From: an uncultured Chloroflexia bacterium
GTDB taxonomy: Bacteria; Chloroflexota; Chloroflexia; QHBQ01; JADMIH01
Length of the DNA: 64,000 bases
Assembly: GCA_963797095.1 (NCBI GenBank)
Contig: CAWCNY010000003.1
Coordinates: 128,001 to 192,000, forward strand
Direction of reading: 5' to 3'
Of this stretch, positions 4,333 through 62,594 are shown in pieces. Numbering within the stretch: the stretch's first letter is position 1; each line of letters opens with the position of its first letter. The notes below the pieces were generated by a model that had not been told where the DNA came from, searched no databases, and saw only the letters and a program-made list of their open reading frames with translations. The position numbers and the translations under genes are program-made.

Positions 4333-4382
4333 GAAATCCTTCCCTGAGAAGAGACTGGAGAGCCACTCCCCAAGAGTCTACT

Positions 4383-4451: not shown

Positions 4452-4473
4452 AGCAGATCGGTATGATGCGCGC

Positions 4474-25880: not shown

Positions 25881-25959
25881 CTTTTCTCCTAGAAGTTACA
25901 GTTAGGGTACAGGTAAACACCCAAGCAAAACCCATGTGTCACTGGTCACCCGTCACTCA

Positions 25960-44426: not shown

Positions 44427-45611
44427 TTATGCGGAGGCTCTCACGATCAGTTCCGGCTCCACAAGCACCTGCATAGGGCCGATCCATTTGACGGTCACGC
44501 TCGCCTCTCCCGGGCTTTCCGCGCTGAATTGCCTGCGTTGCTCCGCCGTAATCGTATCGGCCACCAGACCCACCTTCTTCTTGCGCCGTGCTTGGTTGTC
44601 TATGATCGACACAAGGAGACCGAGCAGGATTTCCGCGATTGAGCCAAGCGGCTGCCGAACTGTAGTGAGCGGAGTCCGAAGATATGCTGCGAATGGAAGA
44701 TCGTCGAAGCCTGTGACCGCTATTGCTCCTGAGCCTGAGCCGGGACCCAAAGTCGGCTCCGCCCCGACCGCTATCCCGCGATCCTGCAAGTCTTGAATCA
44801 CCTGCATGGCAAGGCGGTCGTTGGCGGCCAGGATGGCTGTAGGCCGCGCGTCGTGTGTGACGTTGCCGGTGCTATCAGTGCCAGCGGTGTCAAGCGAGAG
44901 AAGGTGGGCAATCGCTTCCCTGGTGTTTGCCTGTTCCTGCAAGTCTACGATCACCAGGCGCTCGTCAAGAGGCAAGCCATGATTTTTCAAGCCTTCAACG
45001 TAGCCATCATAGCGGTACAGCGAGTAAGATGTGTTGAGAGGTCCGCTCAAATAGGCAATCGTCCGGTGGCCCTTGCCGACCAGGTAATCGATGACCGCAC
45101 GGATGCCTGCCCTGCTGTCCAGGTCCACCAGCGGGTAGTAGAGCCCCTCATAATCTGCGGTACGCCCGAAAGCAACGAATGGAATGTCAAGCGACTGGAG
45201 CAGATCGATCCGCTCGTCCTGGGGTTTGATGTCGGCAATGATAATACCATCCACCCGCCCGCTTCCGGCCAGCTCGCGATATATTTGGCTCGTATGGCTT
45301 GGAGTATCGGCAATGGTTGCCAGCAAGCTCAGGTTGTGGCGAAATGCGGAGAGGGTCAGCAAACCCAGGAACTCTTTGAAGAAGGGCTCCGACTCGATAT
45401 GCCCGCGAATCAGCGGAGCAAAAGCCACGGTGTCGGTGCGCCGCCTTTGTAAGCTGCGTGCCGCGGCGCTCGGGTAATAATTTAGAGACCGGGCGATTTC
45501 GATGACCCGCTGGCGCGTCTGTTCATTCACGTCGCTGAAGCCGTTGAGCGCGTGCGAAACCGTGGTGATAGATACGCCAGCTTCTCTGGCAACATCGAAG
45601 ATGGTACTCAT
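44427..45611 (-). CDS. LacI family transcriptional regulator
   Basis: TIFDVAREAGVSITTVSHALN HTH; GFDD and LTTVRQP motifs. Confidence 0.95.
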   Translation of the reverse strand: MSTIFDVAREAGVSITTVSHALNGFSDVNEQTRQRVIEIARSLNYYPSAAARSLQRRRTDTVAFAPLIRGHIESEPFFKEFLGLLTLSAFRHNLSLLATIADTPSHTSQIYRELAGSGRVDGIIIADIKPQDERIDLLQSLDIPFVAFGRTADYEGLYYPLVDLDSRAGIRAVIDYLVGKGHRTIAYLSGPLNTSYSLYRYDGYVEGLKNHGLPLDERLVIVDLQEQANTREAIAHLLSLDTAGTDSTGNVTHDARPTAILAANDRLAMQVIQDLQDRGIAVGAEPTLGPGSGSGAIAVTGFDDLPFAAYLRTPLTTVRQPLGSIAEILLGLLVSIIDNQARRKKKVGLVADTITAEQRRQFSAESPGEASVTVKWIGPMQVLVEPELIVRASA

Positions 45612-45742
45612 ATCGAGCCCTTCGCTGAGCTAGCGAATCAGCAGCCAGCTATCACTTTCCGGCCGGTCGCTGCGTGCAGGAGACTGGCCCTGACTATAGA
45701 ATCAACCTCAGGCGGTACGATCTTCTCGCGTTAATTTGGTCA

Positions 45743-45794
45743 CCAAAACATTTTGGACCAGCAGTATTATTGACGAAAATGTAGCCCCTGTCAA
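45743..45794 (-). promoter_or_regulatory. Promoter and second LacI-type operator for the lacI-hydrolase operon
   Basis: Minus-strand TTGACA (45794-45789)-17 bp-AATAAT; near-palindrome CCAAAACATTTTGG at 45743-45756. Confidence 0.6.
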
Positions 45795-45846
45795 GACCTG
45801 AGGATGAGCCTGTAGTGTGCAAACTCTGGTCCATGTGTGGGCAGCC

Positions 45847-46110
45847 TTATGCAGCTTGGCTATCGCTGTCATTATCCATGATCAGGAACCTGGGTGCCTC
45901 TCTCCATGCTGTTGCCTCCCTCGGCTGCTGGGCCGTCCATGCGTCTGTTGGAGAGCGGGTGACGCCGAAGTGGACCACACGCCGGGAGCCAAGTTCTATC
46001 GTGAAGAAGCTGAACAAGTGCCTGAAGAACAGGTCATACGTTGGCAAGTACGTCTAGCGCCGAGACCCGAGCCATCAATAGTCCACACGTTTTCTGCATG
46101 CGCTAACGAA
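45847..46110 (-). pseudogene. Integrase-core (rve/DDE) transposase fragment
   Basis: LPTYDLFFRHLFSFFTIELGSRRVVHFGVTRSPTDAWTAQQ.REA..PRFLIMDND; frameshifted and truncated at both ends. Confidence 0.7.
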
Positions 46111-46289
46111 GTGCTGTCTCTGGCAGTCGAATTGTTGCAGTAGAGGCTCTTCGTATCCCGATGCCCCCGACTATTCAACGCTCTCCATTACTGACGAAGA
46201 GTGTTGGTAAGCCCTACTCTAGCGAACTTGTTCAATTGTTGCAACACTGCCCCAACAACCAACCAACGGCTGATCGGGGCACGTCGGTC

Positions 46290-46660
46290 CCCGTCTCGCG
46301 GGCGGCTTCGGCCGCGGCACGCACTGTCTGCCAGGCCCGCTGTACCTCCGGCCCCAGCTGCAGCGCCCACTGCTCGACCTCCGACCAGGCAACCTGTGGC
46401 GTGGTGCGGCGCAGATCCGAGAGCACCAGGTTCAGGCAGTCGCGGAAGTGGCGTTCGCTCTCGCCCAACGCGTACCCTCCTCCAGCCACTTGCCTACCCC
46501 TGTGCCTTTGGCCAATGCTGGGAATCGAGCAGCGAGTACTGAAAGAACGCACTTCTCCCATTTGGAGACGCGGCGTGATCGAGGGACTTTGCGCTGCTGG
46601 AGCCGTGGGATTGCGCTTCGCTCCATTTAGCGCAGCAGGAGTATTTCGATATCCATCTGT
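46290..46660 (-). pseudogene. Possible decayed nucleotidyltransferase-like gene
   Basis: YALGESERHFRDCLNLVL..VAWSEVEQWALQLG resembles C-termini of a nucleotidyltransferase-like family; upstream frames are broken. Confidence 0.3.
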
Positions 46661-46818
46661 CGGTCAGACAGGCGGCGGGCAGCGAGCACGCCAACAACCA
46701 ACTCGAGGATGTAAACCAGCACCTAGATACAGACGCGCATGGGACAAGCATAAGCCGACTTCCGCGCCTATACAAGGCTCTATGTCCGCCGGATGCATAT
46801 TTGCACGACTACAACGTC

Positions 46819-46847
46819 TTGACAGATGCCCATTGAGGTGATAATAT
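46819..46847 (+). promoter_or_regulatory. Sigma70 promoter of the nrtR-led operon
   Basis: TTGACA-17 bp-TAATAT with TGn extension, followed by an AT-rich tract (candidate operator). Confidence 0.7.
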
Positions 46848-46888
46848 AACTATAGATAATTCAAATTAGCTTCAGTGGAAGAATCAAC

Positions 46889-47656
46889 ATGAAAGTAGAC
46901 GGCGACCACAACATCAATAGGAATGAGGAAGAGGCATTACAGGCGAACGCCGTGCTGGCGGTCGATGTGGTGCTTTTCACGGTGCGGGAAGCCGAGGACC
47001 TTGAGGACGCCTGGCAGGTGCTGCTGGTCAAGAGCGGCAAGCGAGTGTTCGAGGGAAGGCGCGCTCTGCCCGGTGTCATAGTGCGCCCGAAGGAGAGATT
47101 TGAAGAGGCCGCGCGGCGGGCGCTGCGCACAAAGACCGGGTTGGATGCCACCGACTGGTATCTTGAGCAGTTGGGGACCTGGGGCGAGCCTGAGAGGGAC
47201 ACGCGCGGAAGGGTGGCTTCAGTGGCATACTTCGCGCTGGTGCGCTCTGACCACCTGGTGCTGGCGGCGGGGGATATGATGCTCGATGCCGAGTGGGTGC
47301 CCGTTCGGCGCGCGCTTCGGGAGGAGTTGGCGTTCGATCACTCGGAGATGTTGAGGGCGGCGGTGGCGCGGGTCAGGTCGAAACTGCGGTATTCGTGGGT
47401 GGCGTTCCAACTATTGCCCGACCGCTTCACCTTGCCGGAGATGAGGGCGGTGTATGCCGCGATCCTCGATCCTTCGGTGGCGCGGCTCAACAGCAGCAAC
47501 TTCAAGCGCGCTTTCGGTGAGTTGTTCGAGTCGGGTGCGCTTGTGCCTACAGGGGAACGCGCCGATATCCAGGGTCGTGGCAGGCCGGGCGACCTCTACC
47601 GCTTTTCGGGCCCGCTGGCGGGAACGCGGGAGCGCGAGTTGCCCTGGCACAGTTAG
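46889..47656 (+). CDS. nrtR: NrtR-family regulator (Nudix + winged HTH)
   Basis: AVDVVLF, YLEQLGTWGEPERDTRGRVASVAY, LAFDH, FTLPE, NFKR and GRPGDLY motifs; Nudix box degenerate (RALRTKTGL). Confidence 0.88.
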   Translation: MKVDGDHNINRNEEEALQANAVLAVDVVLFTVREAEDLEDAWQVLLVKSGKRVFEGRRALPGVIVRPKERFEEAARRALRTKTGLDATDWYLEQLGTWGEPERDTRGRVASVAYFALVRSDHLVLAAGDMMLDAEWVPVRRALREELAFDHSEMLRAAVARVRSKLRYSWVAFQLLPDRFTLPEMRAVYAAILDPSVARLNSSNFKRAFGELFESGALVPTGERADIQGRGRPGDLYRFSGPLAGTRERELPWHS

Positions 47657-47729
47657 GATTTCGGATTGCGGATTTGATTATGGAGGGGTGGATTTTGACT
47701 AGGTCATATTCTAATTCGTGAGGTGTGAG

Positions 47730-48563
47730 ATGGTAGAGTTTCAGGTGGTTGGAGGGACGGTGATGGGGCGGGAGCACTACCGGATGCGGGCTAACAGGCA
47801 GGATGCGTTCCGTATCGAGAGGCTGGATGGAATTGCCGTGGCGGTGGTGTGCGACGGGTGCGGCGACCCTGCAAGCCCACATTCGGAGGTAGGTGCCGTG
47901 CTGGGGGCGCGCACCATCGCGCACAGGCTGTCTGCACTGCTGGCCGCCGATGAGATGCTTCTATCCACACAGGATGGGATGGAAAAAGTGTTGGAGAGAG
48001 TGCGGAGAGACACGCTCGTTAGCCTGAGAAAGTTAGCCAGGACGATGGGCGAGGACCCTGAGGAGGCGATATGCGATTGCTTCCTGTTCACTGTAGTGGG
48101 GTGCGCTATCGGTGAAACGCACGCGGCGTTCTTCGCGCTGGGCGATGGGGCAATCATCGCCAATGGGGTGGCTATTGTGCTTGGCCCCTATGAGAACAAT
48201 GCGCCGCCCTATCTAGCCTACGGGCTGCTGGGAAAAGGCATAGAGCAACATGATCTGGGCTTCAAGGTGCATCGCCATTTGCGCACCTCTGAGCTTGACA
48301 ATTTTCTAATTGGCACGGATGGAGTTTGCGACCTGATTAAGGACGATGGGCAAACACTACCCGGCACTACGGAGCCTATCGGGGGCGTGGAGATGTTCTG
48401 GCACGAAGCGATACACTTCTCCAATCCGCATGCGCTCGGCAATCGCCTGCGCCTGATCAACACCGATCAGGTCAGGATAGATTGGCAGAGCCACAGGAAA
48501 ACGACTGATTGGGGCAGGCTGGCGGACGATACTACCCTGGTGGTGGGGAGGCGGAGTGGATAG
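47730..48563 (+). CDS. PP2C-like Ser/Thr phosphatase
   Basis: GREH..NRQDA, VVCDGCG, LGDG, IGTDG and DDTT motifs. Confidence 0.88.
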   Translation: MVEFQVVGGTVMGREHYRMRANRQDAFRIERLDGIAVAVVCDGCGDPASPHSEVGAVLGARTIAHRLSALLAADEMLLSTQDGMEKVLERVRRDTLVSLRKLARTMGEDPEEAICDCFLFTVVGCAIGETHAAFFALGDGAIIANGVAIVLGPYENNAPPYLAYGLLGKGIEQHDLGFKVHRHLRTSELDNFLIGTDGVCDLIKDDGQTLPGTTEPIGGVEMFWHEAIHFSNPHALGNRLRLINTDQVRIDWQSHRKTTDWGRLADDTTLVVGRRSG

Positions 48564-48583
48564 TGCGTGCTGCTTACTTTTTT

Positions 48584-48639
48584 GCGTATTGCGTATTGCG
48601 TATTGCGTATTGCGTATTGCGTATTGCGTATTGCGTATT
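48584..48639. repeat. Perfect heptamer microsatellite (GCGTATT)x8
   Basis: Eight exact units between the phosphatase and kinase genes. Confidence 0.95.
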
Positions 48640-48666
48640 GCGTCTCCGTATCGGTAGGGTGAGGCT

Positions 48667-50592
48667 ATGAAGAGTGTTTATGTGGGTCGGCGTGAGATCG
48701 GATTGTCGAGCAGGAACGCCATCGGGAAGGGCGGCGAGGCTGACGTGTATAGCATTGGAGGCGGGCTGGCTCTGAAAGTGTTCAAGACGCCTGACCACCC
48801 CGACTTGCAGGTGCTCGATCCCGCTGAGAGGCAGGCGTTGGCCTGCGCGGCGCAAATGCGCATCGAATTGCACCAGCACAAGTTGCCCGCCTTCCCTCAT
48901 GGTCTGCCCGCACCAGTGCTTGCCCCGGTAGAGTTGGCTTACGACCGCAGGGGAAGTGGGGCGCGCATCGTCGGGTATACGATGCCGTTCATCAAGGGAG
49001 CAGACCTGCTGTTCCAGTACGGCAAGCGGGGGTGGAGGGAGTCGGCGTTAGGGGCGGGCATCAATGAAGATAGAGTGCGCGATCTGCTGCTGGAGCTTCA
49101 CGCGGCAGTGACAGGCATCCACGCGGCTGGGGTGGTGATCGGCGACTTCAACGACCTCAATGTGCTGGTGAAGGATGGCCGGGTGTATATGGTAGACGCC
49201 GACTCGTTCCAGTACGGCGGTTTCCTGTGCAACACATTTCAGTACCGCTTCCTGGACCCACTCCTTTGCGAGGCGGTAGGCACGCACCCTGAGATGGTCA
49301 GGCCGCACAATATCGGGTCGGATTGGTATGCATACTCGGCGATGGCGATGCAGTGCCTGTTGTACGTCGATCCGTATGGCGGGCTGTACAGGCCTGCCGA
49401 CCCTTCACACAAAGTGGCGGAGGCGCTGCGCCCGCTCCAGAGGATCACGGTGTTCAACCCTGAGGTGCAGTACCCCAGGGCGGCGCTGCCGATCTGCATG
49501 CTGCCCGACGACCTGCTTCAGCACCTGTACGCGACGTTCGAGCGCGACGTGCGTGTCGAGTTCCCGGCGGCGCTTCTGGACGGAATGAGGTGGACCAAAT
49601 GCTTGCAGTGCGGCCAGCGGCACGCCCGGCAGGTATGCCCGTTCTGCACCGGACAGACGGGGGCGGTGCTCGCGGACGCGGCGCGCATACAGTCGCAGGA
49701 GGTGCGCGGGCAGGTGATCGCAACCCTTGTGTTCAGGACCGAAGGGCTGGTGGTGGCCGCATCGGCGCAGGGTGGTCGCTTGCTGTGGCTGTATGAAGAA
49801 GGAGGTGAGTTGAGGCGTGAGGATGGATCACCTGTAACTCAGGGAAGCGCCCGGCCCGGCATGCGGGTCAGCTTGAGCGGCACTAGCACGCATCTGGCTA
49901 TGGGAGGCGTGGGAGTCACGCTCAGTCCGGACGAGGGGCCTCAGCGGCGGCTGGCCGAGAACTTGGGTGGCGAGACGATGCTGGCCGCAAACTCGCGCCA
50001 CGCCTACTGGATCGAGGGTGGGTACCTGTATCGGGAGGGCGCGCTTGGGCTTGGGCCGTTCCTGATCGGTGAAGTGCTGGCGAACGCTACCCATCTGTGG
50101 GTTGGCGAAACGTTCGGCTTCGGGTTCTACAGGGCCGGAGGCATTTCGGGCGCGCTGGTGTTCGATGCCGAACGGGCCGGGATCAACGACCGGGTGGGGG
50201 TGCAGATCCCACGCGGGCAGATAGTTGACGACGAATGTGTGCTCGGCGATGACAGGTGCTGGTTCATGGTCAGCGCCCAGGAAGGAGGTAGTATAATCAA
50301 CTATTGCACGGTAATTATGCGCGCTGGCAGGGTGATTGCTGCACACAAAGCGAAGGATGGCGACGGGTCGTGGCTGGGGTCGATACATGGGCACTGCGCG
50401 GCAGGCCCGGCCCTGCTGGCCCCCACCGACGCGGGGATTGTGCGCCTGGAAGCGCACGGCGCCTCCATCCAGGAGACGAAAACTTTCCCCGATACAGCAT
50501 CCTTTGTACAAGGTGGAAGCAGGCTCTTTGGAGCACCCAATGGAGTATATGTGATTAGCTCGAACGAGATAAGACTGTTGCGGATGGCATGA
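48667..50592 (+). CDS. YegI-like Ser/Thr protein kinase with Zn ribbon and beta-rich C-terminal domain
   Basis: GKGGEADVY, ALKVF, VIGDFNDLNVLV, VDADSF and SDWYA motifs; CLQC..CPFC. Confidence 0.85.
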   Translation: MKSVYVGRREIGLSSRNAIGKGGEADVYSIGGGLALKVFKTPDHPDLQVLDPAERQALACAAQMRIELHQHKLPAFPHGLPAPVLAPVELAYDRRGSGARIVGYTMPFIKGADLLFQYGKRGWRESALGAGINEDRVRDLLLELHAAVTGIHAAGVVIGDFNDLNVLVKDGRVYMVDADSFQYGGFLCNTFQYRFLDPLLCEAVGTHPEMVRPHNIGSDWYAYSAMAMQCLLYVDPYGGLYRPADPSHKVAEALRPLQRITVFNPEVQYPRAALPICMLPDDLLQHLYATFERDVRVEFPAALLDGMRWTKCLQCGQRHARQVCPFCTGQTGAVLADAARIQSQEVRGQVIATLVFRTEGLVVAASAQGGRLLWLYEEGGELRREDGSPVTQGSARPGMRVSLSGTSTHLAMGGVGVTLSPDEGPQRRLAENLGGETMLAANSRHAYWIEGGYLYREGALGLGPFLIGEVLANATHLWVGETFGFGFYRAGGISGALVFDAERAGINDRVGVQIPRGQIVDDECVLGDDRCWFMVSAQEGGSIINYCTVIMRAGRVIAAHKAKDGDGSWLGSIHGHCAAGPALLAPTDAGIVRLEAHGASIQETKTFPDTASFVQGGSRLFGAPNGVYVISSNEIRLLRMA

Positions 50593-50665
50593 GGTCAAAC
50601 GCGACCACAAGATAACCGGCATTTGAACGACCATGCGTGAAGCATGGCGAAAAGGAGAGAATGAA

Positions 50666-51790
50666 GTGACAACCAATGTAAAGCACGTCGCCGTGAACAA
50701 CGGGATCGCGGCACCCACAGTGCAACACGCCTCATGGCTCCCAGTCCCGCCGCACTTCGACCCCTCGAACACGGACAAGGTGTGGGCGGTCGATTACCTG
50801 GCGCTGGAGCGCACCGGGGAGGCCTGGGCGAAGTCGCACGACATCGCGCCAGCAGCCTCGGATGCTATCAAGACTGCACTGATACTGATCGACGTGCAGA
50901 TCACTTTCTGCACACCGGGATTCGAGTTGTTCGTGGGAGGCAGGTCGGGACGAGGGGCGGTCGAGGACAACGTGCGGCTGTGCGAGTTCATCTACCGCAA
51001 CATGAAGCAGATCACACGCATCTTCCCGACGATGGATACGCACACACAGTTCCAGATATTCCACCCCCTGTTCTGGGTGAACGACGCGGGCGAGCACCCT
51101 GCACCCTACACGGTGATCACACATGCCGATGTAGAGGGCGGAGTGTGGAAGGTGAACCCACGGGCCACCTACTCGCTCGGCGGCAACTACCTGGCGCTGC
51201 AAAAGCATGTTGAGTACTACACCGAGCAGCTTGAGCGGACTGGCAAGTATGCCCTGATCGTGTGGCCACCACACGCGATGCTTGGTGGGATCGGGCATGC
51301 CCTGGTGCCGTCGGTGCACGAGGCGGTGGAGTTCTTCAACGCGGCGCGGGCCTCGCAAACCGGGTTCGAGATCAAGGGCGGGCACCCGCTGACCGAGAAC
51401 TACTCGGTGCTGTCGCCTGAGGTAATCACTACATCAGGTGGTGCGCCTCTGCCGAACGCGGGCAAGAACTACAGGTTCATCGAGAAACTGCTAGATAGCG
51501 CATCGGGCTTCGATGTGATCGGGATCACGGGGCAGGCGCTTAGCCACTGCGTGGCGTGGACAATCGACGACCTTCTGAAAGACATCTTGCAGAAGGACCC
51601 GGCAGCGGCCAAGAAGGTGCACATCATCCGCGATTGCTCGTCGCCCGTTGTTACCCCAGGGTACGACTTCACGGACGATGCTGAGGCCGCCCTCAAGCGG
51701 TTCGAGGAGGCAGGCATGCGCATCGTGCGCTCCACCGACCCCATCACCGAGTGGCCTGGATATACTGAGGCTTTGCAGAAGAACGGTTGA
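50666..51790 (+). CDS. Nicotinamidase-like cysteine hydrolase (isochorismatase fold, long variant)
   Basis: LIDVQITFC, TMDTH, WPPH, IKG..TENYS and GQALSHCV give an Asp-Lys-Cys triad plus metal ligands; GTG start after AAGGAG. Confidence 0.82.
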   Translation: MTTNVKHVAVNNGIAAPTVQHASWLPVPPHFDPSNTDKVWAVDYLALERTGEAWAKSHDIAPAASDAIKTALILIDVQITFCTPGFELFVGGRSGRGAVEDNVRLCEFIYRNMKQITRIFPTMDTHTQFQIFHPLFWVNDAGEHPAPYTVITHADVEGGVWKVNPRATYSLGGNYLALQKHVEYYTEQLERTGKYALIVWPPHAMLGGIGHALVPSVHEAVEFFNAARASQTGFEIKGGHPLTENYSVLSPEVITTSGGAPLPNAGKNYRFIEKLLDSASGFDVIGITGQALSHCVAWTIDDLLKDILQKDPAAAKKVHIIRDCSSPVVTPGYDFTDDAEAALKRFEEAGMRIVRSTDPITEWPGYTEALQKNG

Positions 51791-51794
51791 TTTC

Positions 51795-51939
51795 TTGTAC
51801 ACGAAGAGGCGAAGGAAGGCGAAGGGCACGAAGGTTCTTAAGGATATGAGGCAGTGCCGAGCATGTGTGTGAGCGAATAAGAATAATCTTTAATAAAACT
51901 TCGGGATCTTCGCGTTCTTCTTCGCTTCTTCGTATTCAA
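51795..51939. repeat. Imperfect ~40-bp inverted repeat built from CGAAG/CTTCG units
   Basis: TTGTACACGAAGAGGCGAAGGAAGGCGAAGGGCACGAAG ... CTTCGGGATCTTCGCGTTCTTCTTCGCTTCTTCGTATTCAA. Confidence 0.7.
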
Positions 51940-51979
51940 ATGAAACCCGCTGAGGGCAAGATAATAAGGAGATAAGGAA

Positions 51980-52786
51980 ATGAATAATAACGGAACACCG
52001 GATGTTAGCAGCCTGTTTGCACAGGCGCACGGATACGGCGAGCTTTCGGACGAGGCTTACCAGGCGCTTTCGGTGGCCGACCTGGGGGCGCAGATACAGG
52101 CGGCGATGGGTGTGCCCGCGCTGAACGTGCCCACCAGCCGGGGCGTGCTCCTCACGATGCTGATAGACGATTCAGGCTCGATACGGTTCAAGGGGAACGA
52201 GCAGGCGGTGCGGGACGGCTACAACGAGATCGTGAAGGCGATGAGGGAATCGAAGCAGGCCGACGAGATGCTGGCGACCACGCGCTACTTGAACGGGCGA
52301 GTGCTCTACCCGTACCAGTTCCTGGCGCACGTGCCCCTGCTGGACAAGGGGAATTACCAGGCCACGGGCGGCACCCCCCTTTACGACCAGGCGATAGCCA
52401 CCCTTGGGACGGTGCTTGCCAAGACGCTGGAGTTCGGGCGGAACGGCACTCCTGTCAACACGGTGACGCTGATTGTTACGGACGGCAACGACGAAGGCTC
52501 GACCAGTACGGCCCGGCAGGTCTACCCCATCGTGACCGACATGCTTGCTCAGGAGTGCCACATCGTGGCGGGCATGGGCATAGACGATGGATCCACCGAT
52601 TTCCGAAGGGTGTTTCGAGAGATGGGCATCCCCGACCGGTGGGTGCTGACGCCGCGCAACGACCCCAAAGAGATCAGGCGGGCCTTCCAACTCTTCTCCC
52701 AATCGGCGATGAGGGCGTCATCCAGCGGGGTGCACTTCAGCGCAACAGCCCAGTCGGGGATGTCGATGGGTGGGTTTGGTGGCTAG
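51980..52786 (+). CDS. Stand-alone vWA domain protein (TerY-like)
   Basis: IDDSGS MIDAS, GGTPLYD and IVTDG motifs; strong AAGGAG SD. Confidence 0.85.
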   Translation: MNNNGTPDVSSLFAQAHGYGELSDEAYQALSVADLGAQIQAAMGVPALNVPTSRGVLLTMLIDDSGSIRFKGNEQAVRDGYNEIVKAMRESKQADEMLATTRYLNGRVLYPYQFLAHVPLLDKGNYQATGGTPLYDQAIATLGTVLAKTLEFGRNGTPVNTVTLIVTDGNDEGSTSTARQVYPIVTDMLAQECHIVAGMGIDDGSTDFRRVFREMGIPDRWVLTPRNDPKEIRRAFQLFSQSAMRASSSGVHFSATAQSGMSMGGFGG

Positions 52787-52846
52787 TAGTCGGTAGTCGG
52801 TAGTCGGAGAGAAGCAGGAACCGAAAACTTCTGACTACCGACTACC
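52786..52846. repeat. Heptamer hairpin element (GTAGTCG)3 ... GACTACCGACTACC
   Basis: Inverted arms; a related copy lies at 61108-61193. Confidence 0.8.
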
Positions 52847-52864
52847 ATGTGATATATTGCCTCT

Positions 52865-53365
52865 ATGGCACGATTGACTATCGCACGGGACGGTATAGCG
52901 GAATATCTAAGGCTCATCGAAGAGACGCCGGGACGCGTCCCGGCGTCTACTTCGTGGTTGGATGATGCTCTACTGGCGCAGGCTCCGGGCGGGCGCGGGT
53001 GGTCGGCGGCGCAGGTGCTGGCACACATCAGGGGCTGCGACGAGGTTTGGTCGTACAGCATTTACGCCATGCTGGTGGAGAAAGAGCCTGTGCTGGCGGC
53101 GGTCGATGCGCGCAGGTGGGCAGAGGTCGCCGGATATGAAACGATGGGTTTTCATGAAGCGTTGCAAACGTTTGCGCTCAAGCGAGCGGAGTTGGTAAGG
53201 GTGCTGCGCGGCCTGCCGCAGGAGGCGTGGGGAAGGACCGCCAATATAGGTGGGCGAGCGCACAGCGTGTTCAGCCAGCTCAGAAGGATGGGCAAGCACG
53301 AAGTCGAGCATTGCGGGCAGATTGAGGAATTAACAAAATGGCCCGGATCTAGTGATGAACCTTGA
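52865..53365 (+). CDS. DinB/YfiT family protein
   Basis: WSAAQVLAH ... HEVEH. Confidence 0.85.
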   Translation: MARLTIARDGIAEYLRLIEETPGRVPASTSWLDDALLAQAPGGRGWSAAQVLAHIRGCDEVWSYSIYAMLVEKEPVLAAVDARRWAEVAGYETMGFHEALQTFALKRAELVRVLRGLPQEAWGRTANIGGRAHSVFSQLRRMGKHEVEHCGQIEELTKWPGSSDEP

Positions 53366-53390
53366 CAACGGTACTATCAACGTGTAAAAT
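53362..53390 (+). promoter_or_regulatory. Sigma70 promoter of the hrcA operon
   Basis: TTGACA-17 bp-TAAAAT. Confidence 0.85.
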
Positions 53391-53400
53391 TATTTTGTGG

Positions 53401-53427
53401 TTAGCACTCCATCAAGAAGAGTGCTAG
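53401..53427 (+). promoter_or_regulatory. CIRCE element (HrcA operator)
   Basis: TTAGCACTC-N9-GAGTGCTAG. Confidence 0.95.
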
Positions 53428-53485
53428 CATGCACAAATCTCGCAAGGCTCAGGCGTGAAACGCCAAATCTATAGTGCAAACAAAC

Positions 53486-54559
53486 ATGGACCAGACCGGC
53501 GATATTCGAATTAGCGACAGGCAGCGCATCATCCTCAGCATTGTGGTCGAGGAGTATGTCACAACCGCGCGGCCTGTGGCGTCCGAGCAGATTGTGAATA
53601 ACTACAATCTGGCGGTATCGTCGGCCACGGTACGCAACGACTTGGCCGAGCTTGAGCGGCTGGGCCTTATTGTGCAGCCGCATACCAGCGCTGGGCGCAT
53701 ACCCACCGACAGGGGTTACAGGTATTTCGTGACCAACCTGATGCACCCGGCGTCGCTGTCGCAGGACGAGCAGCGAAAGATCAGGCACCAGTTCCACCAG
53801 GTGGAGTTGGACGCCGAGGAATGGGTGCGGCTGGCCGCGTCGGTGCTGGCACGCACCGTCCATAGCGCGGCAGTGGCGACCGCTCCACGCAGCATCGAAG
53901 TGCGGTTAAAGCACTTTGAACTGCTGGCTATTTCGGAGTCGCGCTTGCTGCTGGTGCTGGTGGGCGATGAAGGCTCGGTCACACAGCAGATGCTGACGGT
54001 CAATGAGGCCGCCGACCAGGGCGAGTTGAGCACGCTATCGAATATGCTGAATACTTCCCTGGCGGGCATGGGCGGCAGTGAGATCGGAGCCTGGACCGCC
54101 AAGGATGAGAATGTCGCGCCCCTGGGCGACCTCGCCCCAACAGTATTGAAAACGCTGGCATCGATGTTGCAGAAGCTGGAACGACCAGAGTCGTCGAACG
54201 TGTACCACGAAGGACTTAGCCACATTTTGGAGCAACCGGAGTTCCGCCAGCCTGAGAGGATGCAGCGAGTGCTTGAGATGTTCGAGCAGGGCGACGTATG
54301 GTCTACCCTGATTACTTCGATGGCGGGCCGCGAAGGCGTGCAAGTGATCATCGGAGAAGAAGCGGCTGCCGAAGGGATCGCCAGTTGCAGCGTAGTGCTG
54401 GCGCGCTACGGACTGGAAGACCGCATGACCGGCATTCTGGGCGTGGTCGGCCCCATGAGGATGCCCTACAGCAGGTCGGTTTCGACCGTGAGCTATATGT
54501 CGCAGTTGCTGAGCGACCTTTTGTTGCGGGCATACAACCCCTATCGGGGTAGCGAGTGA
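53486..54559 (+). CDS. hrcA: Heat-inducible transcription repressor HrcA
   Basis: SSATVRNDL, QPHTSAGRIPTDRGYRYFV and GVVGPMRMPY motifs; alternative GTG start at 53474. Confidence 0.97.
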   Translation: MDQTGDIRISDRQRIILSIVVEEYVTTARPVASEQIVNNYNLAVSSATVRNDLAELERLGLIVQPHTSAGRIPTDRGYRYFVTNLMHPASLSQDEQRKIRHQFHQVELDAEEWVRLAASVLARTVHSAAVATAPRSIEVRLKHFELLAISESRLLLVLVGDEGSVTQQMLTVNEAADQGELSTLSNMLNTSLAGMGGSEIGAWTAKDENVAPLGDLAPTVLKTLASMLQKLERPESSNVYHEGLSHILEQPEFRQPERMQRVLEMFEQGDVWSTLITSMAGREGVQVIIGEEAAAEGIASCSVVLARYGLEDRMTGILGVVGPMRMPYSRSVSTVSYMSQLLSDLLLRAYNPYRGSE

Positions 54560-54609
54560 CGAGTGACGAGTGACGGAGTAAGCAGTTCGCAGTTCGCAGT
54601 TCGCAGTAC
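54556..54609. repeat. Heptamer arrays (GTGACGA-like)3 and (GCAGTTC-like)4
   Basis: Begins at the hrcA stop codon. Confidence 0.8.
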
Positions 54610-54672
54610 ATCAGACCACAAAGGCAAGAGAATTAAGAACTCAGGGGGTGAGTGTAAAGAGTGAGGGACAAC

Positions 54673-55188
54673 ATGGAACAGGAAGCAAATATAGAAGAAA
54701 CGCCAAACGGCATCGAGGAAGCCCAGGAGCAAACCGGACAGGTAGCGCCTGAGCGCGACATGGCGGCGGAGTACCTCGAAGCCTTGCAGAGAGAGCGCGC
54801 CAACTTCATCAATTACAGGCGGCGCGTAGACCAGGAGAAGACAGAAAGCGCCCAGTACGCAGCAGCCAACCTCATAAAGAAACTGCTCCCGGTGGTGGAC
54901 GATTTCGACCGGGCGCTGGCGGCGGTGCCGGAGGCCGACCGCAAGCACAACAAGTGGCTACAAGGGATCGAGTTGATCGCCCGTAAGCTGCACGCTGTGC
55001 TTGAAGGAGAAGGCGTAGAGCCGATCGAGGCGTTGGGCCAGCCATTCGATCCGAATCTGCATGAGGCTGTCGCATTCGACGACAACGGGAACGGCGGCCC
55101 GGATACAGTGAGCGAGGTGTTCGCCAAAGGCTACAAGCTAAAGGACCGCGTGATCAGGCCGGCAATGGTCAAGGTATCGCGGGGATAA
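54673..55188 (+). CDS. grpE: Nucleotide exchange factor GrpE
   Basis: RERANFINYRRR, FDPNLHEAV and GYKLKDRVIRPAMVKV motifs. Confidence 0.97.
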   Translation: MEQEANIEETPNGIEEAQEQTGQVAPERDMAAEYLEALQRERANFINYRRRVDQEKTESAQYAAANLIKKLLPVVDDFDRALAAVPEADRKHNKWLQGIELIARKLHAVLEGEGVEPIEALGQPFDPNLHEAVAFDDNGNGGPDTVSEVFAKGYKLKDRVIRPAMVKVSRG

Positions 55189-55304
55189 GCGGAGTGCGGA
55201 GGGAAGCCCTTTGCCGGGGTTTCAGGGGTGTCCCCTGCTTCTCACCCTTCCCATTCTAATAAGACAATTCAGAAATCAAAATTCATATTTGGAGGAAACA
55301 TAAA

Positions 55305-57227
55305 ATGGCACACGTATTAGGCATAGACCTCGGCACCACCAACTCGGTCATGTCAGTGATCGAGGGTGGCGAGCCGACCGTCATACCAAACGCTGAGGGA
55401 GCGCGCCTGACGCCCTCTGTGGTGGCAATCTCGAAGTCGGGCGAGAGGCTGGTGGGGCAGGTCGCCAAGCGGCAGGCCATCACCAACCCTGAGAACACGA
55501 TCTTCTCGATCAAGCGCTTCATGGGACGCAAGTTCAACGACCCTGAGGTGCAGCGCGATACCAAGCTTGTTCCATACCGGGTGTCAGAGGCCGCCAACGG
55601 CGACCTGCAGGTGTGGATGGGCGGCAAGGCGTTCTCGCCACCGGAGGTATCGGCGATGATCCTTCAGAAGCTGAAGACAGACGCCGAGGCTTACCTGGGC
55701 GAGAGGATCACACAGGCAGTGATCACAGTCCCTGCCTACTTCAACGACACCCAGAGGCAGGCCACCAAGGATGCGGGCAAGATCGCGGGCCTTGAGGTGC
55801 TCCGTATCATCAACGAGCCTACCGCATCGGCGCTCGCCTATGGCCTCGACAAGAAGACCGAGGAAGAGATTGCAGTGTATGACCTGGGCGGCGGCACATA
55901 CGATATCTCTGTGCTGTCTCTGTCCGAGGGAGTGTTCGAGGTGAACGCCACCAACGGCGATACCCACCTGGGCGGCGACGACTTCGACCAGAGGATCATC
56001 GACTGGCTGGCCGACGAGTTCAAGCGCGACCAGGGGATCGACCTCAGAGGCGACCGCATGGCCCTCCAGAGGCTCAAGGAGGCGGCTGAGAAGGCCAAGA
56101 TCGAGCTTTCAACCACCCAGAGCACCGAGGTCAACCTGCCGTTCATCACCGCCGACGCCGAGGGGCCGAAGCACATGAACATCACCCTCACCCGCTCCAA
56201 GCTGGAGCAGTTGGTGGGCGATCTGATCGACAAGACCATCCCGCCGATGAAGAGCGCCCTTTCCGATGCCAAGATGACCCCGTCGAACATCGACGAGGTG
56301 CTGCTGGTGGGCGGCCAGACGAGAATGCCCGCCGTGCAGAAGAAGGTACAGGACTTCTTCGGGAAGGAGCCTCACAAGGGCATCAACCCCGACGAGGTGG
56401 TGGCGGTGGGAGCCGCGATCCAGGCAGGCGTGTTGCAGGGCTCTGTGAAGGACGTGCTGCTCCTCGACGTGACCCCTCTGACGCTCGGTTTGGAGACTCT
56501 GGGCGGGGTGGCGACACCGCTGATCCAGCGCAACACCACCATCCCGACCAAGAAGAGCCAGGTCTTCTCCACCGCATCGGACAACCAGCCGAGTGTTGAG
56601 ATCCATGTGCTCCAGGGCGAGCGCCCTATGGCAAACGAGAACAAGAGCCTCGGACGCTTCATCCTCGATGGTATCCCGCCCGCACCGCGTGGCGTGCCCC
56701 AGGTTGAGGTGACGTTCGATATCGACGCCAACGGCATCCTCTCTGTGAGCGCCAAGGATATGGCGACCCAGAAGGAGCAGAAGATCACCATCACCGCATC
56801 GTCGGGCCTGTCTAAGGACGAGGTCGAGCGGATGGTGAGGGAGGCCGAGTCGCACGCGGAAGAGGACAAGAAGCGCCGCGACCTGATCGAGTCGCGCAAC
56901 ATCGCCGACAGCATGGCATACCAGGCTGAGAAGACGCTGCGCGAGCTTGGCGAGCAGGTGCCCGCCGACATCAAGACCGAGGTCGAGGGGAAGGTGAGCG
57001 AGGTGCGCGAGGCTCTGAACACCGAGGACGTGGACCGAATCAAGCGCTCTAGCGAAGAGTTGAGTGCATCGCTCCAGAAGATCGGGCAGGCCATGTACGC
57101 ACAGCAGCAGGCCAACGCAGGCACGCGAGGACCCGACACCGAGGGCGCGACCGGCAACGGCGCATCGGAGCCGGGCGCCGATAAGGCCGAGGAAGGCACC
57201 GTCGAGGGCGAGTTCCGCGAGGTGTAA
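55305..57227 (+). CDS. dnaK: Chaperone DnaK
   Basis: [17 protein letters not shown] and DLGGGT motifs. Confidence 0.99.
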
Positions 57228-57249
57228 TCGGACCTGAAGTGAAAATCGA

Positions 57250-57284
57250 AGACTGAGGATCGGGATTGGCTCGGTCCTCAGTCT
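57250..57284. terminator. Hairpin between convergent dnaK and peptidase genes
   Basis: AGACTGAGGATCGGG-ATTGG-CTCGGTCCTCAGTCT. Confidence 0.6.
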
Positions 57285-57290
57285 CGCATT

Positions 57291-58808
57291 TCAGGAGGTA
57301 GTTGGACGCGAGGGCGTGCTGGCTCTGTAGTGGGCAAAGAGGCGATGCAACCCGGCCACAAGTGAGAGCGTGGACAGCAAGAACAATCCCGTAGCCAGGT
57401 CTTTGCGGTCGATGGTCGCCATCGAGGCGGAAGGGTTCACATGAACTGATTGCGAAGCGTTGAGGGCCATTTCTTCGGCCTTGTAAAACGCAATTGCGCT
57501 TTCGGATTCGGGGGTAGATGTAGGAATGGGCTGGCCACCTGCGGAGTTGGCACCAATAGAACCTTCTGTTGGAGTTGTAGGGGTAAAAGTGGCGGGCACC
57601 GTGGCCGTAACTGTGGATACGGACGTGGCGGTTGTGAGCGGAGTATTCGTCGAGGTGGCTGTAGGCTCGGCGGTGAACGTGGGTGTTGCCGGCGGCGGGT
57701 AGGTGCCTATCACTTCGAGGGCCGTGTGGGCGCGCATGCACCGCCATGGATAACTGACCGCCTTGCCGCTCGTCGAGCCGTAGCCGTAGGCGAAGCGGTT
57801 GCCGTAGGGATCGTTGACGATTAGCTGATTGTTGGCGGTGTAGCCGATGGCGACCAGGATGTGGCCTTCCGCAGTGAGGTCGTTGCCGATCAGGACAGGG
57901 TGAGCGCGTTTGAGGGCTGCCACTATAGATTGGAAGCTGAGCGGTAGAGATTGGCTGGAGAGGCCATGCCATTCCAGCACTCGCCTGATCAGGCCCCAAT
58001 CAGCGAGACCGGTGGGGCAGATAGTACCGTATAAGCCCGCGACCTTCTTGCCCAGGGGGTCGTTGGCGGTAGCGCTGTAGGTGTGTTCGTTGTTGGTGTA
58101 AGCCTGGGTGACATAAGGAGCGTACTCGGAGCCGTCAGTGGGGCTATTGCCCTGGTTGGCTGTCGCGCCGGGCCAGGGCTGTAGCTTGCCGTAATAGCCG
58201 AGGATCATAGCAACGCTGGTAGGGCCGCAAGCCCAGTTGCCGTCCGCATTGTCGATGTCGTTGACCTGGTGGATGTAGGGCACGTCAAGGGTAAGCACAG
58301 GCTTGCCAGGCTTGACATAGCAGTCGGCGGACGGGGGCTGCCAGGCAGGGGTTTGGGTAAGCGTGGCAGTTGCGCTAGGGGTCGAAGTAGGACTCGTCGT
58401 GTAAGTTGGTATAGAGGTTGATGTGGGGGTAGGAGTTGATGTGACCGTCGAAGTAGAAGCTGCTGGAAGAGGCGTTGAGGCCACGGAAGGCAGTTGCGGC
58501 GTAGGAGTTTCAGTGTCGGTAGGGGCCGGAGGCTGCGTGGGGGGAATGGCAGCGTCATAGGTTGGCTCGGCTGGCGGCTGAGAGGGGGCAGCCGGAGTCG
58601 GGGAAGGCACGCCTGGCACGATCGAGGGGATTGAGATCCAACTGGTGGTGGGCTCGGCGGGAACAACAGACGTGGAATCGGCTTCCGGTTCACCGGCAAA
58701 GGCCGGAGAAGCAAACACACACGTAATAAAGATCAGAGCGCAAAGAGCTACCAGAGAATAGAGCAGGCGCACCCTGATGAGAGCGGTGGAGGAATGGCGA
58801 GGGTACAT
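57291..58808 (-). CDS. Exported C39-like cysteine peptidase with Pro/Thr-rich linkers and C-terminal TM
   Basis: Signal peptide ending PAFA; LDVPYIHQ, ACGPTSVAM (Cys), GHILV (His) and VNDPYG (Asp). Start uncertain. Confidence 0.82.
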   Translation of the reverse strand: MYPRHSSTALIRVRLLYSLVALCALIFITCVFASPAFAGEPEADSTSVVPAEPTTSWISIPSIVPGVPSPTPAAPSQPPAEPTYDAAIPPTQPPAPTDTETPTPQLPSVASTPLPAASTSTVTSTPTPTSTSIPTYTTSPTSTPSATATLTQTPAWQPPSADCYVKPGKPVLTLDVPYIHQVNDIDNADGNWACGPTSVAMILGYYGKLQPWPGATANQGNSPTDGSEYAPYVTQAYTNNEHTYSATANDPLGKKVAGLYGTICPTGLADWGLIRRVLEWHGLSSQSLPLSFQSIVAALKRAHPVLIGNDLTAEGHILVAIGYTANNQLIVNDPYGNRFAYGYGSTSGKAVSYPWRCMRAHTALEVIGTYPPPATPTFTAEPTATSTNTPLTTATSVSTVTATVPATFTPTTPTEGSIGANSAGGQPIPTSTPESESAIAFYKAEEMALNASQSVHVNPSASMATIDRKDLATGLFLLSTLSLVAGLHRLFAHYRASTPSRPTTS

Positions 58809-58934
58809 TATAGGCTGATTATGAAGGGGAAAGAGGCAGAGCGGTATCACATAAAGAGGGGGTAGGGCGTAGCCAGATGGTCATAGGACCGGCGAGGGAG
58901 AATAGTAGTATCTTTGTTGTGGGTGAAGGATGTC

Positions 58935-58963
58935 TCGAAAAGCCGTCTTCAAACGTATATAAT
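58935..58963 (+). promoter_or_regulatory. Candidate promoter for uma2-dnaJ
   Basis: TCGAAA-17 bp-TATAAT. Confidence 0.45.
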
Positions 58964-58982
58964 GGTCAAGAGCGAAAGGCAA

Positions 58983-59543
58983 ATGGTTATGGAGGTGCGC
59001 ACGCCTGCTACAATTGAAGACCTCTACCGAGTCGAGGGGAAAGCCGAGCTTGTTGATGCGGAGATCAAATCTTTGTCGCCTACCGGATATTGGCCCGCTC
59101 GTGCGGGAGCACGCGTCCTCGTGAGCCTGCTCCAATACGAAGAGGTCAGCCGGTACGGTCGAGCTTTGCCGGACAATACAGGCTTCGTGGTCAACCTCCC
59201 ACGGCGCAAATCTTTGAGTCCGGATGTGGCCTTCTTTACTGGCAAGGTTCCAGAGGACTCAAACCTCAAGTTCCTGGAAGGCGCACCCATTTTTGCCGTG
59301 GAAGTACGAAGTGAAAGTGATTATGGCTCAAAGGCAGAGCGCGAAATCGCCGCCAGGCGGGCCGATTATTTCGCGGCAGGCCCACAGGTGGTGTGGGACG
59401 TGGACCTGTTGGGCGAAGATGTTGTACGAGTGTACAGCGCCGCCAACCCTGATAGGCCGAGGATCTACCGCAAAGGCGAGATGGCGGAGGCCGAGCCTGC
59501 GCTGCCGGGCTGGACGATGCCGGTTGACGATTTGTTTCGATAA
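58983..59543 (+). CDS. Uma2 (DUF820) family endonuclease
   Basis: KAELVD, SPDVAF, AVEVRS, YFAAG and LPGW motifs. Confidence 0.88.
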   Translation: MVMEVRTPATIEDLYRVEGKAELVDAEIKSLSPTGYWPARAGARVLVSLLQYEEVSRYGRALPDNTGFVVNLPRRKSLSPDVAFFTGKVPEDSNLKFLEGAPIFAVEVRSESDYGSKAEREIAARRADYFAAGPQVVWDVDLLGEDVVRVYSAANPDRPRIYRKGEMAEAEPALPGWTMPVDDLFR

Positions 59544-59576
59544 TACGTGAATACATAGAGGAAGTATAAAAGAGAG

Positions 59577-62066: not shown

Positions 62067-62594
62067 ATGAAAGAGCCAAATTGGTTTGAGAGGATTTTCG
62101 ATTTCAGCTTCCCGGGGGAGTATTTCCCTTATGTGGTGGAGCGGGTGCGGGGCACTCCTGCCCGTTTGGAGGAGCTGGTGGCGGGGATCGACCCTGCTGT
62201 CCTGACCGTCAGACCCGACGGTGAAGAGTGGTCCATACAGGAGCATGCAGGCCACCTGCTCGACCTGGAAGAACTGCACGTGGGGAGGCTGGACGACTTC
62301 GCAGCCGAATCTGACACTTTACGCGCCGCCGATGTGACCAACCGCAAGACCTACGAGGCGAACCACAACGCAGGCTCAATAAAGGACATATTGCAGGCGT
62401 TCAGGGCCACCCGCAAAGAGTTCGTAGCCAGGATCGAGGAGCTAGACGAAGCAGCCGTACAGAAGTCGGCGCTCCACCCCAGATTGAATGTGCCGATGCG
62501 CATGGCGGACCTCGTCTATTTCACGGCGGAGCACGATGATCACCACCTGGCAAGCATCACGATCGTGGCACGCGAATTGAAGGGAAGGAAATAG
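62067..62594 (+). CDS. DinB/YfiT family protein
   Basis: WSIQEHAGHL, ALHPRL and EHDDHH motifs. Confidence 0.88.
   Translation: MKEPNWFERIFDFSFPGEYFPYVVERVRGTPARLEELVAGIDPAVLTVRPDGEEWSIQEHAGHLLDLEELHVGRLDDFAAESDTLRAADVTNRKTYEANHNAGSIKDILQAFRATRKEFVARIEELDEAAVQKSALHPRLNVPMRMADLVYFTAEHDDHHLASITIVARELKGRK

Follow-up and report, generated by a model that had tools for sequence, protein, structure and literature searches.

Why should a gene for a nicotinamidase stand between the genes for a protein kinase and a von Willebrand factor A (vWA) protein, in an operon headed by an NrtR regulator? This question is raised by a five-gene cassette in a 64,000-nt stretch of DNA from an uncultured Chloroflexia bacterium, analysed here as a whole and called the window. 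The cassette consists of five co-oriented open reading frames (ORFs) on the + strand, at 46889-52786, with inter-ORF gaps of 61, 103, 40 and 189 nt:

46889..47656, + strand: NrtR-family regulator with a degenerate Nudix sensor and a winged helix (255 aa; Pfam NrtR_WHD and NUDIX)
47718..48563, + strand: PP2C-type Ser/Thr phosphatase (281 aa, GTG start; Pfam PP2C_2)
48667..50592, + strand: YegI-like Ser/Thr kinase (641 aa; alignment, hhalign, AlphaFold2 and Foldseek)
50633..51790, + strand: long-form PncA-like nicotinamidase, an isochorismatase-like hydrolase (385 aa; invariant residues and hhalign)
51980..52786, + strand: vWA protein with an intact metal ion-dependent adhesion site (MIDAS) and a conserved Gly-Phe-Gly C-terminal tail (268 aa; alignment, AlphaFold2 and Foldseek)

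These identities had been proposed in a preliminary description of the DNA, and the ORFs, Pfam, hhalign and the predicted folds agree on them. We hold with moderate confidence that the window contains a widespread mobile cassette in a minimal version headed by NrtR, and that in this cassette a phospho-switch resembling that of the TerY-P systems is attached to nicotinamide (Preiss-Handler) salvage.

Relatives of the cassette were collected from metagenomes by a scan anchored on the kinase, which carries no bias toward the nicotinamidase; 391 relatives were confirmed, and the best 80 loci were kept, forming 67 clusters at 90% kinase identity. In loci whose flanks are long enough for the count, PP2C was found upstream of the kinase in 49/49 loci (45/45 clusters), the nicotinamidase downstream of the kinase in 56/59 loci (51/53 clusters) and the vWA gene in 44/46 loci (40/42 clusters). 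The nicotinamidase of L090 falls outside the position filter of the locus count and is included in the looser cluster count; the vWA gene is missed in L072 and in L094, the latter being cut by the contig end. NrtR lies <=5 kb upstream in 16 of 37 loci, divergent in 8 and co-oriented in 8 (15/34 clusters), and is an optional part of the cassette. A scan of IMG/VR yielded 16 loci on contigs of 42-545 kb; the usual four-gene order is found in 13 of them, with kinase identity down to 22-25%, and the order vWA-PP2C-kinase-nicotinamidase in two. On the metagenome, cluster and IMG/VR linkage counts we rejected chance adjacency of unrelated genes, and the linkage counts likewise speak against a plain salvage operon with unrelated neighbours, which was also rejected. 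The proposal that the genes form one conserved functional unit is thus borne out by the neighbourhoods, in which both the nicotinamidase and NrtR co-occur with the triad of vWA protein, PP2C and kinase elsewhere.

Presence of the cassette is patchy. Within the genus, the kinase was found in 4/24 other genomes, the nicotinamidase in 5/24 and the vWA protein in 4/24; the five-gene order is kept in G004, G022 (an unpublished genome), G017 and G015 where contigs allow, and the cassette occupies differing genomic places in these relatives. In a phylum sample of 301 genomes that includes the window's own genome (G000, 93% complete), the kinase was detected at E <= 1e-30 in G000 and partly in one other, and plasmids gave only three weak kinase-domain matches (24% identity). 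A scan of public genomes anchored on the nicotinamidase gave 20 loci, in 11 of which the nicotinamidase stands without the triad. The cassette is present in the Chloroflexia loci L016-L019 and L021, which may overlap the genus set; the two sets are not summed. In L021, a Chloroflexia metagenome-assembled genome, nrtR, PP2C, kinase and nicotinamidase are each recovered in 2-3 tblastn pieces in different frames, which suggests frameshifts or assembly errors in the record. The cassettes of Phormidium tenue FACHB-1050 (L022) and two Obscuribacterales keep the same order at 32-58% identity. In L022, a divergent nrtR is followed by PP2C, two ADP-ribosylglycohydrolase genes and the kinase, and then by genes for a 198-aa protein, the nicotinamidase, a 171-aa protein and the vWA protein; in the two Obscuribacterales (L034, L035) NrtR is lacking and the order is PP2C-kinase-nicotinamidase-vWA, at 32-41% identity. 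Hosts named by the sources are cyanobacteria, Chloroflexota, Patescibacteria, Elusimicrobia, Planctomycetota, Acidobacteria, Myxococcota and Obscuribacterales, to which huge phages are added. The cassette is therefore accessory and spreads horizontally as a unit, its four core genes being almost inseparable across loci.

The company kept by the cassette was examined by de novo clustering of the other ORFs in the 80 metagenome loci, followed by Pfam. Nicotinate phosphoribosyltransferase (NAPRTase, pncB) lies near the cassette in 14/47 loci with enough flank, a cytidylyltransferase-like/NAD-kinase-N fusion of nicotinamide mononucleotide adenylyltransferase (NMNAT) type in 10/47 and NadE in 5/47; any of the three is present in 19/47 loci and 16/39 clusters. 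A NAPRTase gene also directly follows the triad-free nicotinamidases of L028 and L033, overlapping or adjacent. In L031 the 447-aa ORF after the nicotinamidase is at best a divergent NAPRTase, because it matches QRPTase_N only; with it, the triad-free loci of this kind come to 3/11. No pncB, nadD, nadE or ter genes adjoin the cassette in the window. The earlier statement that this is not a plain salvage operon is therefore right for the window, but elsewhere the cassette sits within Preiss-Handler clusters (pncB, NMNAT fusion, nadE). The NAPRTase of G000 (518 aa, N and C domains) is encoded at a distance of about 270 kb from the cassette, with no NrtR beside pncB; through it, what the cassette nicotinamidase produces can be returned to NAD+. 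Besides, G000 encodes two short isochorismatases of the ordinary kind.

ADP-ribosylglycohydrolase genes were found inside the cassette in L022, L061, L095, L111 and L112; in the cyanobacterial-type cassettes (L022, L095, L111, L112), one or two of them stand between PP2C and the kinase. Together with the NrtR boxes of the cyanobacterial versions described below, they reinforce the NAD/ADP-ribose theme that had been read from the window. The cyanobacterial-type cassettes share the 198-aa protein before the nicotinamidase, L022 having also the 171-aa protein after it; in L022 the added genes, those for the glycohydrolases included, lie at 3943-5492, 7398-7994 and 9325-9840. In L061, the gene directly after vWA (L061:10938-13592) encodes an 885-aa STK-TIR-AAA_35 protein, a candidate NADase neighbour; relatives of this protein are encoded on the opposite strand in L068 and L098.

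The nicotinamidase is one of >8000 family members of about 347 aa, with about 60% identity between Chloroflexia and cyanobacteria, which the sources name 'isochorismatase' or 'nicotinamidase-related amidase'. Across 23 sequences, neither the catalytic residues D87, K248 and C306 nor the metal ligands D135, H137 and H214 vary, and the conserved core starts near residue 36. Alignment with E. coli PncA by hhalign gave a probability of 96% (E 4e-9) over 137 columns, with the WPxH, KG and C motifs aligned. A different substrate has nevertheless to be weighed. The isochorismatase-like protein could act on some other amide, for example nicotinamide mononucleotide, nicotinamide riboside or a modified side chain of a protein that the vWA protein holds, in which case a product related to ADP-ribosylation would be processed by the cassette. 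We regard this as highly doubtful. The protein matches no Pfam or NCBIfam family, it exceeds E. coli PncA by about 150 residues, with only the 137 columns aligned, some relatives have an extra conserved 240-aa N-terminal domain, and cyanobacterial versions co-encode ADP-ribosylglycohydrolases. However, all catalytic and metal residues of PncA are invariant, WPxH included, and the commonest extra neighbour is nicotinate phosphoribosyltransferase, the direct consumer of nicotinate. In a tree of 84 nicotinamidases (FastTree, midpoint-rooted and read without regard to branch supports), stand-alone and pncB-linked members fall among the cassette-linked ones at several points, suggesting that the enzyme has one function and that the triad was gained or lost repeatedly.

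Two further observations concern this family. The extra N-terminal domain of about 240 aa is found in L037:8905-10647, P0017, P0031, P0038, P0046, L113, L083 and L145; the L037 and P0017 versions are 62% identical, and no Pfam family matches it. The idea that the 198-aa protein before the cyanobacterial nicotinamidase represents this domain, fused in other members, was rejected, as a comparison shows the two to be unrelated. In a genus relative, L020, a lone nicotinamidase 79% identical to that of the window, and its sister in the tree, occurs without triad or NrtR and adjoins a divergent TrmB-type regulator and an SLH protein.

The window NrtR matches Pfam NrtR_WHD (50.6 bits) and NUDIX (41.8 bits), both over cut-off, and scores 116 bits on the NCBIfam equivalog NF050029, under the 400-bit cut-off. 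In its translation the glutamates of the Nudix-box motif REUxEE are replaced (RRALRT) and the catalytic glutamates are lost; most NrtR members are described as having such replacements (PMC2330246). The window protein would respond to ADP-ribose. The NrtR motif is given as a 21-bp palindrome with a GT-N7-AC core that varies between lineages (PMC2330246). A 21-bp palindrome of the type ATAGTGTAAAAATAACACTAT, with the GT-N7-AC core, lies between nrtR and PP2C in eight loci with divergent nrtR, namely L022, a genome locus, and the seven metagenome loci L095, L112, L091, L085, L066, L075 and L056. Upstream of the window cassette we found the following elements:

46819..46847, + strand: sigma-70-type promoter TTGACA-17-TAATAT with TG extended -10 (10/12 consensus positions)
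46842..46869, + strand: AT-rich element over the -10 box and start region, a candidate operator (promoter alignment)

The preliminary description had placed the five genes behind one consensus promoter. The match to consensus and the -35/-10 pair, which is kept before nrtR in 5/5 aligned Chloroflexia promoters (window, L018, L012, L019, L021), favour this promoter, although promoter-like sites alone are not above chance, with 5 in 45500-53600 (8.1 kb) against 3.1 +/- 1.7 in shuffles. The AT-rich element, 28 nt of sequence TAATATAACTATAGATAATTCAAAT(T)AG, is almost identical in the window, L018 and L012, the flanking sequence diverging; L019 and L021 have TACTA-N5-TAGTA palindromes where the window has the element. 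The candidate operator does not fit the GT-N7-AC NrtR box profile. No + strand terminator-like sites were found inside the five-gene cluster, and an Rfam search of 45500-53500 gave no match at E <= 0.1. A second NrtR of G000 heads nadB-nadC-nadA (contig C2, L122:6162-10436) with the promoter TTGACA-17-TAGAAT, an arrangement listed for Chloroflexi (PMC2330246). On the upstream regions of this second nrtR and of pncB, the cyanobacterial-type profile made from the eight boxes found nothing over shuffled background.

The catalytic motifs of the phosphatase, kinase, nicotinamidase and vWA protein, described from the start as intact, are readable in translation or invariant in alignments. PP2C has the motifs CDG, GDG, TDG and DD and scores 61 bits on Pfam PP2C_2; for the products of genes 3-5 (kinase, nicotinamidase, vWA), no Pfam family was matched, and public records call these three of the four core proteins 'hypothetical'. 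The kinase is made of a kinase domain (about 1-305), a Cys4 zinc ribbon (312-327), a disordered linker and a beta-propeller (about 350-641). Its catalytic motifs are GDFNDLN and DADS, in which G159, D160, F161, N162, N165, D177, D179 and S180 are invariant in 22 sequences; in the same alignment, C312, C315, C324 and C327 of the ribbon are nearly invariant. Its likeness to E. coli YegI was confirmed by hhalign (probability 98.2%, E 3.4e-14, 296 columns), the alignment covering the kinase domain and the CPxC region. According to a preprint, in YegI a DSD loop replaces DFG, and its Ser is autophosphorylated and essential (10.1101/819920). The AlphaFold2 model of the cassette kinase (pLDDT 85.7) shows the kinase domain, ribbon, disordered linker and an all-beta C-terminal domain, and its top Foldseek matches are kinase + WD40 proteins (LRRK2), plain kinases and the Ycf48 propeller. 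Our proposals for what the propeller binds, and for who phosphorylates whom, are conditional and are given with the mechanism below. In the vWA protein the MIDAS residues D63, S65, S67, T132 and D168 are invariant in 27 sequences; the AlphaFold2 model (pLDDT 88.2) gave 316 Foldseek matches at E <= 0.001, with vWA and integrin I domains first. About 2500 proteins labelled 'hypothetical' make up this vWA family.

An intact MIDAS beside a metal-dependent enzyme brings up an explanation in terms of assembly or metal loading. Here the vWA protein would act as a chaperone that loads or holds the nicotinamidase under the control of kinase and PP2C, and the triad would be a maturation factor. The nicotinamidase and vWA genes adjoin, often 4 nt apart (L041 9968/9972, L069 5504/5508, L099 9344/9348), and the metal ligands D135, H137 and H214 and the MIDAS are all invariant. 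In NrtR/WYL-regulated ADP-ribosylglycohydrolase systems, which include vWA, this protein has been described as a Mg2+-dependent peptide-binding chaperone (PMC9503650, section 3.8), and a metal-sensing switch is one role proposed for TerY-P (PMC11090510). Yet the nicotinamidase family works without the triad in 11/20 genome loci, contact between the proteins is assumed, and a kinase with a sensor-like propeller exceeds what a chaperone would need. We consider metal loading quite unlikely as the main role of the triad.

The viral copies bear on a role in defence. Neighbours of the IMG/VR cassettes were run against Pfam for 13 of the 16 loci, three near-duplicates being excluded. Phage-like surroundings, with HNH and NUMOD3 endonucleases, a PHA02142-type RNA ligase, Prim-Pol, PIF1 helicase and RNase H, are seen at several of the loci, and several of the contigs are clearly from huge phages; the contigs L139 and L154 look cellular. 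NAPRTase, NadE or NMNAT adjoins the cassette in L140, L147, L150 and L153, NAPRTase being near it in L140, L150 and L153, and in L140, L147 and L150 the NAD-synthesis genes come with phage-like neighbours. Among deposited phages, LR745208.1 (485 kb) has a distant version of the cassette that packs a short nicotinamidase, vWA, PP2C and kinase into 7 kb; in LR756511.1, the stretch examined holds PP2C and kinase only.

The preliminary description had offered two roles, a switch to dormancy or abortive defence and the gating of NAD+ recovery. In the former case, NAD+ breakdown products would induce the operon, and the kinase/PP2C/vWA switch would drive dormancy or abortive infection via host or phage targets, while the nicotinamidase would remove nicotinamide and so keep NADases uninhibited or block phage salvage of the NadV type. 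Several findings are of the kind expected for such a system: the triad is organised as in TerY-P, and modules like TerY-P are reported to be validated antiphage systems that work alone (PMC11090510); the distribution is accessory-like (kinase in 4/24 genus genomes and in 2/301 of the phylum sample, G000 included); the genomic places differ in relatives, and an insertion sequence (IS) fragment lies beside the window cassette; and in one locus, L061, the STK-TIR-AAA_35 gene directly follows vWA. Nevertheless, the conserved core encodes no toxic effector such as a nuclease or pore, enzymes that build NAD recur as its neighbours, and huge phages carry the cassette beside pncB, nadE or NMNAT, which fits a phage need for NAD+ and not host suicide. 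A search of PADLOC-DB 2.0 (E <= 0.01) with the five cassette proteins, a check that the preliminary description had called for, gave no defence family except a 13-bit MkoA match for the kinase. Antiphage defence thus seems to us unlikely, and of the two roles first offered the gating of NAD+ recovery fits better.

The surroundings of the window cassette point the same way. Sugar metabolism genes and LacI lie upstream, and DinB and hrcA-grpE-dnaK-dnaJ lie downstream; the flanks are not a defence island. Decayed mobile-element fragments had been described next to the cassette, and one was recognised:

45847..46047, - strand: decayed transposase fragment, rve-type integrase core (66 aa; upstream of the cassette)

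Parts of three longer ORFs at other places in the genome match the fragment at 73-77% identity, and the DNA of the fragment gives 73-78% matches over about 175 nt to the genomic copies; one of the three longer ORFs, the full-length transposase copy L133:871-2046, carries Pfam rve_3. The description holds for this one piece. Pfam gave no match at E <= 0.1 for any of the five ORF fragments in 45817-46841, the 66-aa fragment among them. A comparison of insertion sites showed hrcA-grpE alone to be syntenic in three cassette-free genomes of the genus (G005, G012, G009), in which LacI, the debranching-type enzyme and DinB are all absent upstream of hrcA-grpE.

Taken together, our best reading is that the cassette serves NAD+ recovery rather than abortive defence. 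We favour it because of the company of NAD-building genes and NrtR, the lack of a toxic effector in the core and carriage by huge phages. The mechanism would be as follows. Cleavage of NAD+ in the cell would yield ADP-ribose and nicotinamide; ADP-ribose would free the promoter of NrtR, and the operon would be transcribed. The nicotinamidase would convert nicotinamide to nicotinate, which PncB would return to NAD+. The kinase may sense something via its propeller and, together with the opposing PP2C and the MIDAS vWA protein, may set when the nicotinamidase is active or assembled. The triad could act on the enzyme by phosphorylation, by vWA-mediated assembly or through propeller sensing.

A number of observations weigh against this reading. 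The window promoter is without a GT-N7-AC box, the best score of the eight-box profile being 2.6 bits against a shuffle mean maximum of 5.3, and NrtR adjoins the cassette in 15/34 metagenome clusters and is not beside it in the other 19/34. Among the metagenome loci 28/47 are without nearby NAD-synthesis genes. L072 and L073 are true misses of the nicotinamidase, which is also lacking in one of the 16 IMG/VR loci (L152). The window nicotinamidase fails the Pfam isochorismatase model PF00857, six relatives are also without a Pfam family, and sequence matches to PncA in the PDB are weak (E 0.019 with the single sequence, E 0.086 with the family profile); nicotinamide is therefore its presumed substrate. 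The rooting and the supports of the enzyme tree call for the same caution. A physical link between triad and nicotinamidase is presumed, and, by analogy with the antiphage TerY-P-like modules (PMC11090510), the cassette may have a role in defence.

NAD+ depletion is a central weapon in bacterial immunity, and rebuilding NAD+ is a known counter-move of phages. We know of no post-translational control of bacterial nicotinamide salvage. With these in mind, NAD+ recovery by the cassette can be carried one step further, as a tentative possibility that we hold well below an even chance: it would be an 'NAD+ rescue' signalling module used on both sides of the phage-host conflict, in which the propeller responds to something that NAD+ cleavage or ADP-ribosylation has produced or damaged, kinase and PP2C toggle the vWA protein, and this in turn activates the nicotinamidase, so that nicotinamide is cleared and NAD+ is rebuilt via PncB. 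If so, the module would help bacterial cells back from the alarm set off by their own NADases, and it would let huge phages overcome immunity that works by depleting NAD+; for the first time, Ser/Thr phosphorylation of the eukaryotic type would be seen to govern NAD+ salvage in bacteria directly. Control of the nicotinamidase by the triad, if real, would provide TerY-P-type triads with a definite output open to assay and the orphan E. coli YegI family with a relative that is easier to study; it would also bring NAD+ recovery after immune activation within direct experimental reach.

Other features of the window were recorded along the way. Two DinB_2-family genes are present, at 52865-53365, directly after the vWA gene, and at 62067-62594; the first has its own weak promoter-like site (52831-52858) and is not conserved beside the cassette elsewhere. 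At 53474-60725, a Peptidase_C39-like gene (57291-58850, opposite strand) and a Uma2 restriction-endonuclease-like gene (58914-59543) split the hrcA-grpE-dnaK heat-shock cluster from dnaJ. A MoxR (AAA_3)-DUF58-BatA/vWA-vWA/GATase1-like operon of the Bat aerotolerance type at 5984-12559 (- strand) is a second, unrelated vWA system. An alpha-glucan metabolism neighbourhood comprises maltokinase-like and GlgE genes and a large pullulanase/alpha-amylase with CBM20 (24270-27942, - strand, and 17281-21366, + strand).

How does the cassette relate to systems already described? A full-text literature search for nicotinamidase + vWA + PP2C + kinase, NrtR + PP2C and nicotinamidase + vWA found no description; in a looser search, nicotinamidase or isochorismatase was not joined with vWA or TerY in the matches listed, supplements and the 2012 TerY-P paper lying outside its coverage. 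The cassette is so far unnamed: its parts are known, their combination was not found in print, and a brief earlier mention may exist. By definition, TerY-P combines vWA and PP2C with a kinase that carries a zinc ribbon (PMC11090510). The cassette has the same three protein types as TerY-P and E. coli yegL-pphC-yegI and agrees with that definition as stated, so that the architecture had been rightly recognised. The kinase domain and zinc ribbon are homologous to those of YegI, with a common Asp-x-Asp-Ser loop. In contrast, the C-terminus of the cassette kinase is a beta-propeller, and neither the C-terminal region of YegI nor an OB fold; the gene order is PP2C-kinase-nicotinamidase-vWA and not vWA-PP2C-kinase as in yegL-pphC-yegI; and in nearly every copy a nicotinamidase gene lies between the kinase and vWA genes. 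The cassette PP2C has no BLAST likeness to PphC, and the likeness of the vWA protein to YegL by hhalign is weak (probability 13%, 53 columns), in a comparison that held no TerY sequence.

As in the NrtR regulons of NAD metabolism, nrtR heads an operon with a nicotinamidase, and related cassettes carry the 21-bp GT-N7-AC box that the window promoter does not have. Unlike those regulons, the operon holds a kinase, a phosphatase and a vWA protein, and its nicotinamidase is long and Pfam-negative; in the main text of PMC2330246 the words 'phosphatase' and 'hypothetical' are absent, and mentions of kinases concern metabolic enzymes (nicotinamide riboside kinase, ribose-phosphate pyrophosphokinase). 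Canonical PncA (E. coli b1768; M. tuberculosis PncA, PDB 3pl1) shares the catalytic Asp/Lys/Cys, the metal Asp/His/His and WPxH with the cassette enzyme, which is longer (about 350-385 aa, canonical PncA having 186-213 aa), being extended at the N-terminus and carrying a large insertion. Phage NAD+ synthesis clusters have been described as NadV with NadM/NadR and as the pncB-nadD-nadE of jumbo phages (PMC7824862, PMC9503650, PMC11662467). The huge-phage-like contigs likewise carry NAPRTase, NadE and NMNAT, here beside the cassette, whereas the clusters as published seem to consist of metabolic enzymes only, and 'kinase' and 'vWA' are absent from the main text of PMC11662467.

Among published systems, the closest is one built on ADP-ribosylglycohydrolase, regulated by NrtR or WYL and equipped with vWA chaperones (PMC9503650). 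Common to both are a Nudix-HTH repressor predicted to sense ADP-ribose, a vWA protein and an accessory, variable distribution, and the cyanobacterial cassettes also share ADP-ribosylglycohydrolase genes. The main text of PMC9503650, supplements aside, has no wording on PP2C, PncA, isochorismatase or TerY. Those systems are centred on the glycohydrolase, with rhodanese, calcineurin, HD or HAD phosphatases, whereas in the cassette the glycohydrolase is optional and the invariant core is kinase, PP2C, nicotinamidase and vWA.

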